Source of the DNA: a virus
Taxonomy: Duplodnaviria; Heunggongvirae; Uroviricota; Caudoviricetes
DNA length: 4,324 bases
Strand: one strand, 5' to 3'
IMG/VR virus record: IMGVR_UViG_3300000059_000077
Location: 1-4,324 of that record
Numbering within the stretch: the stretch's first letter is position 1; the number at the start of each line of letters is the position of its first letter. The translations under genes were made by a program, and so were the position numbers. Below are positions 1 through 4,193 of the stretch, in pieces. The notes under the pieces are model-generated. The model worked only from the letters and a program-made list of their open reading frames with translations, was not told where the DNA came from and did no database searches.

Positions 1-42
<42 letters not shown>

Positions 43-45
43 ATA

Positions 46-121
<76 letters not shown>

Positions 122-240
122 ATTGGTTCCTCAGGTGTGGATGAGATGCCCGGATACATAAATTACCCTCCCTTGGAACCGACGAAGAATAATAATGAAT
201 TCCGCTCCTGTTTCAATACAAACAATGTCAGGTATTTAAA

Positions 241-290
241 ACATAATTATACAATATTATAAAAATTAAAAAGTTCGCAAAAAAAAACTA
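241..290 (-). promoter_or_regulatory. AT-rich candidate promoter for the tRNA cluster (two TATAAT hexamers on the minus strand)
   Basis: The minus strand reads ...TTTTTATAATATTGTATAATTATG..., giving perfect TATAAT hexamers at 261-256 and 251-246, the second preceded by TG. A T9 run and TTGCGA sit upstream at 287-275. No clean 17-bp-spaced -35 was found, so this is a weak call. Confidence 0.3.
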
Positions 291-1334
291 ACTATTGTTT
301 CTTATTTCATCAAACGTTTGATTAAACCTGTCCGTTTCCAGCTCTACACCAATAGCTCTACGTTCCAGAGAGAGCGCAGCCTTTATAGTCGCCCCCGATC
401 CCATAAAAAAGTCTGCAACCAGTTCCCCCGGACGACTGCTGGCTGTAATTATCTGCCGCAACATATCTGCTGGCTTCTCACACGGATGTTTACCCGGATA
501 ATACTGCACAGGTTTGTGCGCCCAGACATCCGTATAAGGAACGGCAGCCGATACGGAAAAATAACGCCGCAGGGATTTGTACTCCTCCAGCAGGCTGGCA
601 TATTGTCGGTTCAGTTCGCTGTATGTGCTGACCAGCTGGTGGTGTGGCTTTTCCAGTTCACCGCGCTGATGTTTTTCTGCTGCAACACGCGCAAACAACG
701 CCTGCAGTTTTCTGTAATCAACCTCATTCGGCAACTGCCACTGACTGGCACCAAACCAGTGTGAAGCCATGTTTTTCTTTCCGGTGGCTTCCGCTATCTG
801 TTTTGATGTTATCCCCAGTGATACACGCGCATCACGAAAGTAAGAAATCAGCGGGGCCATGACGTGCTGTTTAAGCTTGCGCCCCTTTGCCGCATAGCCG
901 TCATTTTTGGGCTGGTATGGCCCCTGATAATGTTCTGCAAACAGAATGCGTTCTGTTGCCGGGAAATACGCCCGCAGGCTTTCCTTGTTGCATCCGTTCC
1001 AGCGTCCGGACGGCTTCGCCCAGATAATGTGGTTCAGCACATTAAAGCGCTCACGCATCATGATTTCGATATCAGATGCCAGGCGATGACCACAGAACAG
1101 GTAGAGACTTCCGGCAGGTTTCAGTACCCGCCAGAACTGCGCCAGACACTGGTCCAGCCATTTCAGGTAATCATCGTCGCCCTTCCACTGGTTATCCCAG
1201 CCCTCGGGCTTCACTTTAAAGTATGGCGGGTCTGTGACTATCAGATCGACAGAGTTTTCCGGTAAGGTCTGGATAAATTCCAGGCAATCAGCGTTGATTA
1301 ACTCACAACTGGATATTTTTACAGTATTAGCCAT
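288..1334 (-). CDS. DNA methyltransferase, beta-class amino-MTase (N6-adenine or N4-cytosine), orphan
   Basis: 348-aa ORF. Motif IV is LIVTDPPYF near the N-terminus and motif I is DFFMGSGAT near the C-terminus; this IV-before-I order defines beta-class amino-MTases (PF01555-type). No restriction endonuclease partner is visible in the window. Start ATG at 1334-1332 with only a weak SD (GAGAAG). Confidence 0.9.
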   Translation of the reverse strand: MANTVKISSCELINADCLEFIQTLPENSVDLIVTDPPYFKVKPEGWDNQWKGDDDYLKWLDQCLAQFWRVLKPAGSLYLFCGHRLASDIEIMMRERFNVLNHIIWAKPSGRWNGCNKESLRAYFPATERILFAEHYQGPYQPKNDGYAAKGRKLKQHVMAPLISYFRDARVSLGITSKQIAEATGKKNMASHWFGASQWQLPNEVDYRKLQALFARVAAEKHQRGELEKPHHQLVSTYSELNRQYASLLEEYKSLRRYFSVSAAVPYTDVWAHKPVQYYPGKHPCEKPADMLRQIITASSRPGELVADFFMGSGATIKAALSLERRAIGVELETDRFNQTFDEIRNNS

Positions 1335-1470: not shown

Positions 1471-1498
1471 AAATAAAAAAGCCTTCACTGCGGAAGGC
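1471..1498 (-). terminator. Candidate intrinsic terminator overlapping the stop codon of the 65-aa gene
   Basis: Minus-strand RNA GCCUUC-CGCAGU-GAAGGC forms a 6-bp stem (1498-1493 with 1486-1481) and 6-nt loop, followed by UUUUUUAUUU (1480-1471). Folded by eye; the stem is short, so strength is uncertain. Confidence 0.4.
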
Positions 1499-1682
1499 GT
1501 CTGTAACAACCGAACTGATAATCTGCCAGACCCGCCATAACAAGCTGGGTCAGTATTAACTGGCAGCGTTCACGTGAAAGGTAAGTATTCTGCGCAATTT
1601 TCCCGACGGTCGCCGGTTCGGTGACGCTTAATTCATTAAACACCACTCTGGCAGTTTCGGTCATATCCTGCTGTTTTAGCAT
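1485..1682 (-). CDS. Small (65 aa) putative winged-helix DNA-binding protein, possibly FaeA/PapI-like
   Basis: Sequence MLKQQDMTETARVVFNELSVTEPATVGKIAQNTYLSRERCQLILTQLVMAGLADYQFGCYRRLPQ. ATG at 1682 is preceded by AAGGA about 8 nt upstream. The track's TTG start at 1820 lies inside the terminator hairpin, so I reject it. The IA...LS...IL..L...G spacing resembles the FaeA/PapI regulator family as I recall it; this is a weak, unverified similarity. Confidence 0.5.
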   Translation of the reverse strand: MLKQQDMTETARVVFNELSVTEPATVGKIAQNTYLSRERCQLILTQLVMAGLADYQFGCYRRLPQ

Positions 1683-1805: not shown

Positions 1806-1829
1806 AAAAAAAACCCGCAAAAAGCGGGC
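1806..1829 (-). terminator. Strong intrinsic terminator downstream of the Q-like gene (tR'-like position)
   Basis: Minus-strand RNA CCCGC-UUUUU-GCGGG (stem from 1814-1818 and 1824-1828) is followed by a U8 run (1813-1806). It lies about 80 nt downstream of the Q stop codon. Confidence 0.8.
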
Positions 1830-1882
1830 TCTTTCAAATGTCCATGTCTGCTATTCGCCTCGCGGTACAGCTTTGCGAAGCG

Positions 1883-1911
1883 TACCGGCATTGAAGCAGT
1901 TTTTACGTCAA
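1883..1911 (-). promoter_or_regulatory. Candidate late promoter (pR'-like) overlapping the Q stop codon
   Basis: TTGACG (-35-like, 1911-1906) overlaps the Q stop TGA, and TGCTTCAAT follows downstream. No canonical 17-bp-spaced -10 was found. The placement mirrors lambda pR' sitting directly after Q, which is the main support. Confidence 0.2.
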
Positions 1912-2462
1912 AAAGCAATAACTTTTTTCTCTATACAAAAAGCCATAACCATTGGTTTGTACAAAATAAATTCTGCCACCTTTAGCCAATGCTCAATGCG
2001 TCTTTCACAGGTTCTTAAACTCCATTCCGGGTGTGCATCATTCAGCAGTTCAGCCATTTTGCGCTTAGTCATCCCCCGCCCCACATAACGCTGACTCAGG
2101 ACATTGAGCAGCCCGGGATAACCGGCCAGGGCTTCACCAATAACCCTGTCGATTATTAACGCCTCTGAATCGGTACAATGTGCCAGCCAGCTTTTTTGAT
2201 TGCCGTTGATCATATCCCGCAAAAAAGCCTCAAGTTCAGGTTTGTCCAGACCCGCTTTTTTCATCCTCCGGAGCGCCTCGTTAATTGCCGTTTTTGTCAG
2301 CTTTTTAGAGGTCAGTAATTGGTTGAACATATTTCCCGTCTTACCGTCGCCAATATACGACCAACGCCCCCACATACGCAGTTTCCCCTGAATCCAGACA
2401 CTTTCCAGCGTGGTGAGACGAAGGTGTTCTCCGCTTTTTCCTGTATTCGTTGGGTAAATCAT
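1908..2462 (-). CDS. Antitermination protein Q-like late-gene regulator (184 aa)
   Basis: Last gene of the nin-like operon, immediately followed by a promoter-like hexamer and a strong terminator. An N-terminal LRMWGRW motif resembles the WGxW motif I recall in DLP12 QuuD-type Q proteins. Start ATG at 2462 has an AAGGAAGG SD and overlaps the upstream stop as ATGA. The track's longer start at 2582 would overlap the YbcO-like gene by 120 nt. Confidence 0.55.
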   Translation of the reverse strand: MIYPTNTGKSGEHLRLTTLESVWIQGKLRMWGRWSYIGDGKTGNMFNQLLTSKKLTKTAINEALRRMKKAGLDKPELEAFLRDMINGNQKSWLAHCTDSEALIIDRVIGEALAGYPGLLNVLSQRYVGRGMTKRKMAELLNDAHPEWSLRTCERRIEHWLKVAEFILYKPMVMAFCIEKKVIAF

Positions 2463-2749
2463 AAATAACCTTCCTTTCTCCAGACTTCTTGTGTGCGAAA
2501 AACACCTTCTGCATGCATCAGGCGTAATTCTTCTTTGGTGTAATCGCTGGTTTTTACCCGCCCGTCGATTAAATCGTGGCACGAGCTACAGGCAATCGCT
2601 GCCTGCATATCGTGTGGTTTTATCGCCGTTCCACACGTTCCCGCCAGTCGGTAATGCGCCAGCACAGACGTTTCAGGATTGTGATTGCAGTATCCAGGGA
2701 TTCTGACCTGGCACATCTGGCCCCGCGCCACTTTACGTAAATTCACCAT
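2459..2749 (-). CDS. YbcO-like (DUF1364-type) Cys-rich putative nuclease/zinc-binding protein, 96 aa
   Basis: 96 aa with five cysteines (C13, C21, C39, C54, C57). Its size and position just upstream of Q match DLP12 ybcO. Its start overlaps the upstream stop (TAATG) and its stop overlaps the Q start (ATGA). Confidence 0.65.
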   Translation of the reverse strand: MVNLRKVARGQMCQVRIPGYCNHNPETSVLAHYRLAGTCGTAIKPHDMQAAIACSSCHDLIDGRVKTSDYTKEELRLMHAEGVFRTQEVWRKEGYL

Positions 2750-3348
2750 TACGCAAACTCCAGTAGCTGCGCGGCCACATTTTCGACTTGTTCCGGAGAG
2801 GAAAATTTACGGAACAGGATCCAGTTCCACAGCACATTCAGCACAGATTTATAAACCTGCTGAAACTCGGTTTCGTCCATATTCGCAAACGCGATGGATT
2901 TCGCTCGACGCCCGCGGCTACCGTCCGGATAAATATGCTCGGTGTAAAATCCGGCCTGAATGGTTACCCACTCGCGGAAAGCCTCAAACGACTTTAGCAA
3001 TGCCGTATCCCGGGTTCTGCGTGTCGCAACTGTATTCAGATATTGCTCTGCGGCTTCGCTCAGAGCTGGCGTATGTTCCCGGCCTACTGATTCACACAGG
3101 TAATCAACGAATCCTGAAACCAGTTTTCGTTCGCGAGGCGTGATCGCCCCTCCGACCGGAGTCCAGTAATCGAATCCGAGTTGCAGAAGTTTGAAAAAAC
3201 GCTTATGGAATGCGTAGTTACGAACGCGCTTAAAATCAGCGTGTATCCACTCGCCTATTTTGATTTGATGCAGAAAATCACAACTCTCCGGCGTCGCCGG
3301 GAGAAGTAAACCAGAAGAAGTTTGTTTGACCAGTTGTATATGCGCCAT
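2749..3348 (-). CDS. Phage nin-region protein of unknown function (199 aa; possibly DUF1367-like)
   Basis: Long ORF with a GGAG SD 6 nt upstream of the ATG at 3348. The track's TTG start at 3360 is less likely. The stop overlaps the next gene's start. The family assignment is from memory of a roughly 200-aa phage family and is not verified. Confidence 0.7.
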   Translation of the reverse strand: MAHIQLVKQTSSGLLLPATPESCDFLHQIKIGEWIHADFKRVRNYAFHKRFFKLLQLGFDYWTPVGGAITPRERKLVSGFVDYLCESVGREHTPALSEAAEQYLNTVATRRTRDTALLKSFEAFREWVTIQAGFYTEHIYPDGSRGRRAKSIAFANMDETEFQQVYKSVLNVLWNWILFRKFSSPEQVENVAAQLLEFA

Positions 3349-3407: not shown

Positions 3408-3581
3408 TCATTCCCGAACCACCTTGAAACCGAGCCTTTCCAGGTATTCAATGAATGCCTCGATAGATAAAATCACATGATCATCAGGAATTAACGTTGT
3501 GTAGACAACTTTCCCATTCTCAACGCGCACAGCATAGAGGCCATTTTCACTAAAAATTTCACGCAATTCTTCGATTTTCAT
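3408..3581 (-). CDS. Hypothetical small protein (57 aa), absent from the ORF track
   Basis: Hand translation gives MKIEELREIFSENGLYAVRVENGKVVYTTLIPDDHVILSIEAFIEYLERLGFKVVRE. A GGAAGGA SD lies about 8 nt upstream of the ATG at 3581. Its position between hok and the nin-like genes corresponds to rem in K-12 Qin. Confidence 0.45.
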   Translation of the reverse strand: MKIEELREIFSENGLYAVRVENGKVVYTTLIPDDHVILSIEAFIEYLERLGFKVVRE

Positions 3582-3662
3582 CTTCAGAATCCTTCCAGAT
3601 AAATAGCTCTCCCCTTCTCAGGGTCCATCCCTCTTCTCCCTGCGCGCTAATTAAGTGAATCG

Positions 3663-3690
3663 ATTCTAGTCAGGCATACCAGCTAATCAA
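3663..3690 (-). promoter_or_regulatory. Candidate sigma70 promoter for the 57aa-199aa-YbcO-Q operon
   Basis: Minus strand has TTGATT (3690-3685), a 16-nt spacer, then TAGAAT (3668-3663). It lies between the hok terminator and the 57-aa ORF. Confidence 0.3.
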
Positions 3691-3730
3691 CAAACCCTGG
3701 TCGGTTAAATAGAAGGATTGGCTAAAATTT

Positions 3731-3760
3731 ATTAAAATAAAAAACCCGCCGAAGCGGGTT
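3731..3760 (-). terminator. Strong intrinsic terminator ending the hok transcript
   Basis: Minus-strand RNA AACCCGC-UUCG-GCGGGUU forms a 7-bp stem with a UUCG tetraloop, followed by UUUUAUUUUAAU. It sits 68 nt downstream of the hok stop codon. Confidence 0.8.
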
Positions 3761-3828
3761 AAGTGCGGGTGCGTTGAGGATGCCTGACACATCAGAGGTG
3801 GCGAGGGATTTCTCCCCCGCCTGGTCTC

Positions 3829-3984
3829 TTACTCCTCAGGTTCGTAAGCTGTGAAGACAGCGACCTCCGTCTGGCCGGTTCGGATTCGTACCTCGCAGAG
3901 GTCTTTCCTCGTTACCAGTGCCGTCACTATGACGGTTAAACAGATGACGATCAGGGCAATTAACATCGCCTTTTGCTGCTTCAT
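3829..3984 (-). CDS. hokD: Hok/Gef family type I toxin (51 aa), HokD/RelF-like
   Basis: Sequence MKQQKAMLIALIVICLTVIVTALVTRKDLCEVRIRTGQTEVAVFTAYEPEE. It has one N-terminal transmembrane helix and the LCEVR motif typical of Hok/Gef, and matches my recollection of K-12 HokD (RelF). An AAGGAGAAG SD lies 6 nt upstream. Confidence 0.9.
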   Translation of the reverse strand: MKQQKAMLIALIVICLTVIVTALVTRKDLCEVRIRTGQTEVAVFTAYEPEE

Positions 3985-4103
3985 AGCCTGCTTCTCCTTG
4001 CCTTTCGGCACGTAAGAGGCTAACCTACATGTGTCTAGCATGAAATTGGCCTCAGATTAATGTTAAGCGTCTTGCAGGACGCGTAATGTTAACTGGGGCT
4101 TCT

Positions 4104-4140
4104 CTATCTGCCTTTTGGTGTTCATGCCTGAGGCAGATAG
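4104..4140. repeat. Perfect 9-bp inverted repeat (CTATCTGCC / GGCAGATAG) with a 19-nt spacer, upstream of hok
   Basis: Read directly: 4104-4112 CTATCTGCC and 4132-4140 GGCAGATAG. The spacer contains the palindromic GCCTGAGGC. Confidence 0.6.
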
Positions 4141-4193
4141 CCTCAAGCACCCGCAGCAATTCTACTTAACTCTCCTTTTCCCGCAAACCGTTT

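Follow-up and report, generated by a model that had tools for sequence, protein, structure and literature searches.

A predicted Q21-type late-gene switch with a DUF1133 protein in a Rac/Gifsy-like lambdoid prophage

Does the 184-aa open reading frame encoded at 2462..1908 (minus strand) specify a Q-type antiterminator, and does the DNA beyond its stop codon contain a promoter, a pause site and a terminator on which such a protein could act? The initial annotation had proposed a Q-like protein followed by a pR'/tR'-like pair. Here we examine both parts of that proposal in the whole stretch of 4,324 nucleotides analysed (the window) and in related enterobacterial loci.

Gene context and affiliation of the 184-aa protein

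Every gene in the window is located on the minus strand. The distinguished features comprise, in the direction of transcription, a hok/sok toxin-antitoxin pair (hok, 3984..3832; sok RNA match, 4152..3979), a 57-aa ORF (3581..3411), a DUF1367 gene (3348..2752), ybcO (2749..2462) and the gene of the 184-aa protein. These are followed by a gene for a 65-aa protein with a weak winged-helix (wHTH, TrmB-like) match (1682..1485), a gene encoding an N6/N4 DNA methyltransferase (1334..288; Pfam PF01555, 5e-42) and tRNA-Thr (TGT) (121..46). Among complete E. coli genomes, that of TUM9812 is the closest to the window (94% identical). There, the tRNA-Thr is followed by tRNA-Gly, two holin genes and genes for an endolysin and terminase, while replication genes and a cI/cro-type region lie upstream. 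This context therefore identifies the window as the late-regulatory region of a Rac/Gifsy-like lambdoid prophage, with the tRNA-Thr placed between the putative switch and the lysis genes.

The ATG of the 184-aa ORF overlaps the ybcO stop codon as ATGA (2462..2459), and its own TGA stop is found at 1910..1908. All homologues begin with MIY, MIN or MIH at the same ATG. The gene would be the last of the early-right operon, translationally coupled to ybcO. In E. coli phages and genomes, DUF1133 genes (the family to which the ORF belongs, see below) follow DUF1367 and ybcO genes and precede the lysis cassette (holin, endolysin). The cargo inserted ahead of the lysis genes varies, and consists of only two tRNAs, of one unknown gene, or of the wHTH-methylase-tRNA set. 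Relatives from Pseudescherichia, Buttiauxella, Citrobacter and Superficieibacter (55-62% identical) have holin and lysozyme genes within 0.3-2.5 kb downstream, and in the set of related loci, about 60 distinct ones spread over many enterobacterial genera, the gene is located upstream of lysis genes. This position, at the end of the nin region and upstream of the lysis cassette, is the one that marks antiterminators of the Q21/Q933W type.

Searches against Pfam gave a full-length match of the protein to DUF1133 (PF06576; 1.3e-104, residues 1-175 on a profile of 176 positions), a family that both NCBI and Pfam still label "DUF1133, unknown function". A second match, to PF06530, the family of Q21-type antiterminators, extends over residues 69-163 (30.9 bits, E 2.9e-7) and exceeds the Pfam gathering score of 26 bits. 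The protein also falls into PHROG 753, "anti-termination protein Q-like" (4e-81), and no NCBIfam model was found for it. When its single sequence was compared with those of solved structures using phmmer, Q21 was retrieved with an E value of 2.4e-4 (residues 13-181). A profile built from 33 homologues retrieved Q21 at 5.8e-7, the only match below 0.1, which leaves Q21 as the sole significant relative with a solved structure. In an hhalign comparison (95.3%, E 2e-8), DUF1133 residues 16-177 were placed on residues 8-151 of Q21.

The two proteins have the motifs WGxW, C-x-D and TC-x-R in common. The WGRW of the 184-aa protein (residues 31-34), on which the initial annotation had based its assignment to a QuuD/PF06530-type family, is aligned with the WGAW of Q21, and the conserved cysteines C96 and C152 are aligned with Q21 cysteines. 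That annotation had also counted three cysteines and no CxxC pair, and both counts are correct: cysteines are present at positions 96, 152 and 176, and there is no CxxC in the protein. The profile searches that it had named as a check (PF06530, PF03589 and Q21-type) returned the first and the last of these. No match was obtained in Pfam, at E values up to 0.01, to the λ Q family (PF03589) or to the phage 82 Q family (PF06323). Members of those two families are encoded at the equivalent genomic position and are expected to have the same role, but the 184-aa protein has neither the family match nor the zinc-ribbon CxxC. λ Q and Q21 have themselves been described as analogues, not homologues (PMC9388147).

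The fold of Q21 is all-helical, with an interrupted helix-turn-helix. The AlphaFold model of the 184-aa protein, for which the input alignment was restricted to homologues of at least 72% identity, is all-helical and weak (pLDDT 55.7, pTM 0.39). The six best Foldseek matches of this weak model were all Q21 chains (E 0.015-0.036, TM 0.41-0.54), and the next had an E value above 2. As obtained with a low-confidence model, this result is consistent with the Q21 relationship but not decisive. Taken as sequence comparisons, the analyses support the view that the 184-aa protein belongs, as a divergent representative, to the phage 21 Q (Q21/QuuD-type) family and is, as had been proposed, not a λ-Q-like protein. 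The homology to Q21 (PF06530; PDB 6P18, 6P19, 6P1A, 6JNX) extends over nearly the whole protein, although identity over aligned columns is only about 26% and the DUF1133 protein is longer by some 30 residues, at about positions 40-75. The earlier suggestion of a Q-like antiterminator is upheld by the PF06530 score above the gathering threshold, the homology to Q21 and the position between the nin region and the lysis genes.

The DUF1133 family, for which 895 clusters at 90% identity were obtained, is carried by prophages in enterobacteria that include E. coli, Shigella, Salmonella and Citrobacter. Among the matches listed, almost every one of the 120 homologues has both PF06576 and PF06530. 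Their source names are "DUF1133 family protein", "antiterminator", "late gene regulator" and "antitermination protein Q", and a survey found DUF1133 in 13 Stx phage genomes (PMC8136144).

Promoter-like and pause-like elements beyond the stop codon

To compare the DNA that follows DUF1133 genes, we took 27 loci out of species-representative genomes and a further 80 out of viral contigs. From each, a 200-nt segment at and beyond the stop codon was used, which gave 62 distinct sequences. Of these, 59 have the same ordered layout: TTGnnn, 17 nt, TT[C/G/A]AAT, 5 nt and a final hexamer, a pattern that was defined after the data had been seen and is a description, not a test. The -10-like hexamer is replaced by TATCTT or CTATAT in two groups. 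Outside a Gifsy-like group (discussed below) the final hexamer is TAnGCT, with TAAGAT in one locus (L003) and CAAGCT in another (L111). Three observations lead us to argue, from sequence, that the layout is real and not an artefact. It is found again in groups that cannot be aligned outside it; its -35-like hexamer moves from -27 to +8 relative to the stop codon, independently of the reading frame; and only position 3 of TAnGCT is free (C, A, T or G), as is the case for a -10-like element.

In the window, the layout begins with the -35-like hexamer TTGCTT (1918..1913) of a predicted pR'-like late promoter. It is followed by a 17-nt spacer, TTTGACGTAAAAACTGC (1912..1896), which is the counterpart of the site of the phage 21 Q-binding element, and which includes the hexamer TTGACG (1911..1906) and a TG of the extended -10 type (1898..1897). 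The -10-like hexamer TTCAAT (1895..1890) is weak, with T at position 2 instead of the usual A. Transcription is predicted to start near 1883, so that the final hexamer, TACGCT (1884..1879), itself -10-like, would be a sigma-dependent pause element at about -1..+5. A consensus promoter scan of the window did not list the TTGCTT-17-TTCAAT site.

Phage 21 provides the closest known arrangement. In its annotated genome (OL657228), the -35 hexamer TTGACA is located seven nt past the Q stop codon and is followed by a 17-nt spacer containing two 8-bp Q-binding subsites (QBEu and QBEd), ATTGAGCA and AATGAGCA, by a weak -10 hexamer, AACACT, and, 7 nt later, by the start site. A sigma-dependent pause element, TAAGCTG, occupies +2..+8, and a terminator, tRNA-Asn, tRNA-Thr and the holin gene come after it. 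The order of parts is the same at both loci – Q gene, -35, 17-nt spacer, weak -10, pause element, terminator, tRNA genes and holin gene – and the TAnGCT of the DUF1133 loci matches the pause hexamer TAAGCT. The Q/pR'/tR' layout suggested for this locus at the outset thus stands in its order of parts, as in phage 21, but not in the exact promoter hexamer. As sequences, the adjacent promoter, pause element and terminator by which antiterminators of the PF06530 type are recognized were all found.

There are also differences. The window spacer does not contain a tandem repeat of the ATTGAGCA/AATGAGCA type: the best 8-bp repeat in the window (8-13 bp spacing) matched at 4 of 8 positions, whereas the phage 21 control reached 7/8 at 8 bp. 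In some relatives, the same scan found an 8-mer repeat of 6/8 at 12-bp spacing. Conservation across groups is confined to the downstream half of the spacer (AAACTGC in the window, AAAGTGA or AAAGTGC elsewhere), which corresponds by position to the stronger phage 21 subsite. The pause hexamer is found 7 nt past the -10 in phage 21, but 5 nt past it in the DUF1133 loci. At the λ pR' promoter the pause element overlaps the start site; a hexamer at about -1..+5 would be closer to the λ arrangement. The DUF1133 branch has a single conserved half-site, AAAsTGnT, in place of a tandem repeat, and a predicted pause element that overlaps the start site.

The roles of the two hexamers could also be exchanged. 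TAnGCT would then be the true -10 and TT[C/G/A]AAT a Q-binding or other site, transcription would start about 7 nt further on, near 1872, and a promoter-proximal pause element would be lacking. TAnGCT does have the key -10 bases A (position 2) and T (position 6), which TTCAAT is described as lacking, and TGn precedes it in several loci of group C. However, no -35-like hexamer is present 16-18 nt upstream of TAnGCT, while every group has a TTGnnn separated from TT[C/G/A]AAT by exactly 17 nt, and the phage 21 annotation assigns this hexamer, as TAAGCT, to the pause element past the start site. We consider this exchange of roles unlikely.

Another candidate for the -35 of the late promoter is TTGACG (1911..1906), which overlaps the stop codon and which the initial annotation had chosen. 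It agrees with the consensus at five of six positions, better than TTGCTT does, and in the Gifsy-like group a TTGACT overlaps the TGA stop, with TATATT 18 nt further on and then the start of an Rfam isrK match. Within the window, the hexamers 16-19 nt past TTGACG are GCCGGT, CCGGTA, CGGTAC and GGTACG, none of which is -10-like, and TACGCT is 21 nt away. Moreover, in close relatives whose downstream sequence is the same, TTGACG is replaced by TTTACG, ATGAGC or TTTGCC but TTGnnn 5-7 nt upstream is kept, and the Gifsy-like TTGACT promoter is part of a different, inserted module (see below). A -35 function of TTGACG is quite improbable on these grounds; the hexamer is not conserved and lies in the spacer, and the conserved -35-like hexamer is TTGCTT. 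The 1830-1911 fragment that had been put forward for assaying promoter activity would cut off this conserved hexamer at 1918..1913.

A CII-dependent antisense promoter of the paQ type (TTGYN6TTGY), such as the phage 21 annotation places within its Q gene, was sought as well. None was found inside the Q gene, and the single match in the window (877-890) is at chance level.

Terminator, predicted short RNA and the Gifsy-like group

The strong intrinsic terminator that had been noticed about 80 nt downstream of the gene was confirmed by folding and by comparison. This tR'-like element (1835..1806, minus strand) lies about 80 nt past the stop codon of the ORF. Its core, AGCCCGC-TTTTT-GCGGGT plus eight T residues (1830..1806), begins 76 nt past TTGACG and forms a GC stem (GCCCGC/GCGGGT) with a TTTTT loop, and additional A-U pairs extend the hairpin to 1835. 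The 81-nt segment 1884..1804 has a folding energy of -29.6 kcal/mol (z = -4.18), and none of 200 shuffled sequences was as stable. A terminator is present downstream of the homologous gene in 58 of the 61 distinct regions, which speaks against a chance occurrence. The hairpin 1835..1806 was not listed by a consensus terminator scan of the window, presumably because the A residues ahead of the stem pair with the T tract and use up the free T run that the scan requires.

Transcription from the predicted start would produce a terminated RNA of about 78 nt (1883..1806) that consists of a 5' stem-loop and the terminator hairpin. The corresponding transcript is about 50 nt in phage 21, and is predicted to be 62-85 nt long in most relatives. 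The 5' stem of the predicted leader has 8 bp (1882..1875 with 1863..1856). It is conserved among relatives, but its covariation is no better than that of shuffled alignments, with one double change, two wobble changes and a few breaks.

In Rfam, the best match of this RNA is isrK (RF01394), at full model length, with the 5' stem and the terminator aligned. Identification as isrK was rejected, as the score (19.8 bits) lies far below the gathering score of 50 and the middle hairpin is absent. IsrK of Gifsy-1 nevertheless equals the predicted 78-nt RNA in length and has a similar 5' stem and terminator. In Stx phages, StxS is a short terminated pR' transcript that acts as a small RNA (PMC7547250). 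The RNA predicted here resembles StxS and IsrK in that it would be made from a constitutive promoter and end at the first late terminator. It is fairly doubtful that the leader of about 78 nt, with its conserved 5' stem-loop, also acts in trans as a small RNA of the lysogen, as StxS and IsrK do, and that DUF1133 Q proteins, with their extra residues, single half-site and pause element at the start site, load differently from Q21.

The Gifsy-like group, represented in Salmonella (L011) and at some loci of E. coli and Shigella (L007, L008 and others), has a different arrangement: a TTGACT that overlaps the TGA stop is followed after 18 nt by TATATT and, seven nt beyond that, by the Rfam isrK match and then C4. 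In Gifsy-1, the Q-like antiterminator AntQ (SL2579) is encoded directly upstream of isrK; its expression interferes with termination and is toxic in a manner that Rho relieves (PMC4825925). The Salmonella locus contains a DUF1133 gene 75% identical to that of the window, followed by isrK and a 187-aa ORF, which has the exact size of the anrP deletion reported in PMC4825925. Judging by synteny, AntQ of Gifsy-1 is probably a DUF1133 protein; by gene order (L011, L007), a gene of the DUF1133 type lies directly upstream of isrK.

The use of IsrK as an anchor for the start site was considered and rejected. The same TTGACx-18-TATATT arrangement precedes a second isrK copy that is not accompanied by a Q gene (L011, about 250-290), and the promoter therefore belongs to an inserted isrK/C4 antirepressor module. 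In contrast to the window, the DNA that follows the gene in Gifsy-1 is this module with its own promoter, not the TT[C/G/A]AAT-TAnGCT cassette, and nothing in the Gifsy-like group speaks for a cognate pR'.

Module boundaries, cargo and the proposed switch

In phages with the Q module in common, the match to the window runs from 4279 to 1854, a point 54 nt past the stop codon, and takes in the promoter, pause hexamer and 5' stem. The switch DNA therefore travels with its own Q gene, as a cognate pair should. Phage phiP27 and many Stx2 phages match the window from 1818 to about 330, a segment that represents the wHTH-methylase module. From the limits of the two matches, the joint between the modules is therefore placed at or just upstream of the terminator. 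In phiP27, the wHTH-methylase module is likewise preceded by a terminator.

The first gene past the terminator, encoding the wHTH protein, is cargo common to phiP27 and the Stx2 phages, and the methylase module is also present in phiP27 and in many Stx2 phages. For the wHTH protein, the Pfam match to TrmB (E 0.009) is below threshold and the PHROG is 331 (function unknown); in the phiP27 record it is annotated as a TrmB family regulator. Phage 21 differs from the window, where the wHTH and methylase genes are placed between the terminator and the tRNAs. A second, weaker terminator-like hairpin with a T run (1498..1471, minus strand; -8.9 kcal/mol, z -2.15) overlaps the stop codon of the wHTH gene.

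The initial annotation had suggested that expression of the wHTH gene, the methyltransferase gene and the tRNAs depends on prophage induction. For the first two this is plausible, since the promoter scan found no promoter-like site between 1830 and 1334, which makes Q-dependence of the wHTH and methylase genes plausible. The tRNA-Thr stands apart, as it has a promoter-like site of its own (TTGAAA-16-TATTAT, 216..189); such sites are no commoner in the window than in shuffled sequence, and the site is only a hint of a separate tRNA-Thr promoter.

We consider it likely that the locus is the late-gene switch of a Rac/Gifsy-like lambdoid prophage, transcribed from the minus strand and composed of a Q21-type DUF1133 protein and an adjoining promoter, pause element and terminator. 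A weak constitutive promoter (TTGCTT, the 17-nt spacer with its TG, and TTCAAT) would start a transcript near 1883, and TACGCT at the start site would let sigma-70 hold RNA polymerase in a promoter-proximal pause. When Q is lacking, the transcript would end after about 78 nt at the terminator 1835..1806. When Q is present, the protein may bind the promoter spacer and load onto the paused polymerase, narrowing the RNA exit channel, as shown for Q21, so that terminator hairpins cannot form. The polymerase would then pass both the terminator 1835..1806 and the weaker one at 1498..1471 and transcribe the wHTH gene, the methylase gene, the tRNAs, and the lysis and structural genes.

That the terminator merely ends the early operon, with the protein a DNA-binding regulator that leaves elongation unmodified and the downstream genes read from their own promoters, is highly improbable: terminators after the last gene of an operon are common, Q21 resembles region 4 of ECF sigma factors and the tRNA-Thr has its own promoter-like site, but promoter-like and pause-like elements are conserved between stop codon and terminator at a constant spacing that gives transcripts of 62-85 nt, the interval from 1830 to 1334 is free of promoter-like sites, and the protein is homologous to a proven antiterminator, Q21.

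PHROGs, GenBank and a few papers already treat the DUF1133 family as Q-like. The locus described here adds another predicted Q21-type switch and leaves the general understanding of late-gene control unchanged. The predicted positions of its elements provide exact sites for mutation, and they predict a short constitutive RNA in lysogens. Together with the predicted elements, the Q21-type assignment tells which cargo – here the methylase and the tRNAs, elsewhere toxins – would await induction.

Conserved cysteines and variant copies of the Q-like gene

The only conserved cysteines of the window's Q-like (DUF1133) protein are C96 and C152, and cysteines of Q21, its distant relative from phage 21, align with both. 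C176 (AFCIEKK; codon 176, window 1935-1937) was found in the window protein only; in close relatives its place is taken by glycine (AFGIEKK).

Divergent copies of the DUF1133 gene were also observed. At positions 3001-3114 of loci L031 (E. coli ECMA0423) and L032 (Shigella flexneri SFBU1023), the gene resembles the window protein over the first 38 codons only; beyond codon 38 its ORF continues into unrelated sequence, followed by an ORF resembling an insertion-sequence transposase. Both genomes additionally carry DUF1133 copies with a different N-terminus (L013 and L014). An enterobacterial DUF1133 gene (85% identity) is present on a 5.2 kb contig (JARKOR010000130.1) binned as ‘Candidatus Nanosynbacter sp.’, a label that most likely reflects a binning error in a metagenome-assembled genome.

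The region downstream of Q

On the basis of sequence comparison, window 1818-1854 is a mosaic joint. The similarity of Q-module phages to the window reaches down to 1854; that of the wHTH-methylase module in phiP27 and Stx2 phages extends from 1818 downwards. In phiP27, too, a terminator stands before this module.

In Gifsy-like prophages, a module composed of the small RNA isrK and a C4 antisense RNA lies directly 3′ of the DUF1133 gene. This module is P1 immI-like and an antirepressor ORF comes next. The module was located at 290-476 and 3588-3768 of the Salmonella locus L011, and at 3575-3776 of L007, from the E. coli/Shigella group. The second isrK/C4 copy of L011 is placed upstream of hok/sok, with the same promoter and no Q gene.

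Accessory genes and tRNAs of the window

A type I toxin-antitoxin pair, hok/sok, occupies window 3832-4152 (minus strand, as are all features below). It consists of a Hok ORF (3984..3832; Pfam HOK_GEF, 1e-23) and a sok RNA (4152..3979; full-length Rfam match, 110.7 bits), with a terminator-like hairpin nearby (3760..3743). The protein encoded by the DUF1367 gene (2752-3348; Pfam, 2.7e-98) belongs to a PHROG whose label is NinB/Orf recombination mediator (1.2e-69); its homologue is called irsA in one GenBank record.

Comparison with E. coli TUM9812 (L001) revealed that the window edge interrupts a tRNA-Gly gene, the beginning of which occupies window 1-42. Approximately 70 nt upstream of tRNA-Thr there is a promoter-like site, TTGAAA-16-TATTAT (216..189), and the tRNAs may therefore be independent of Q.
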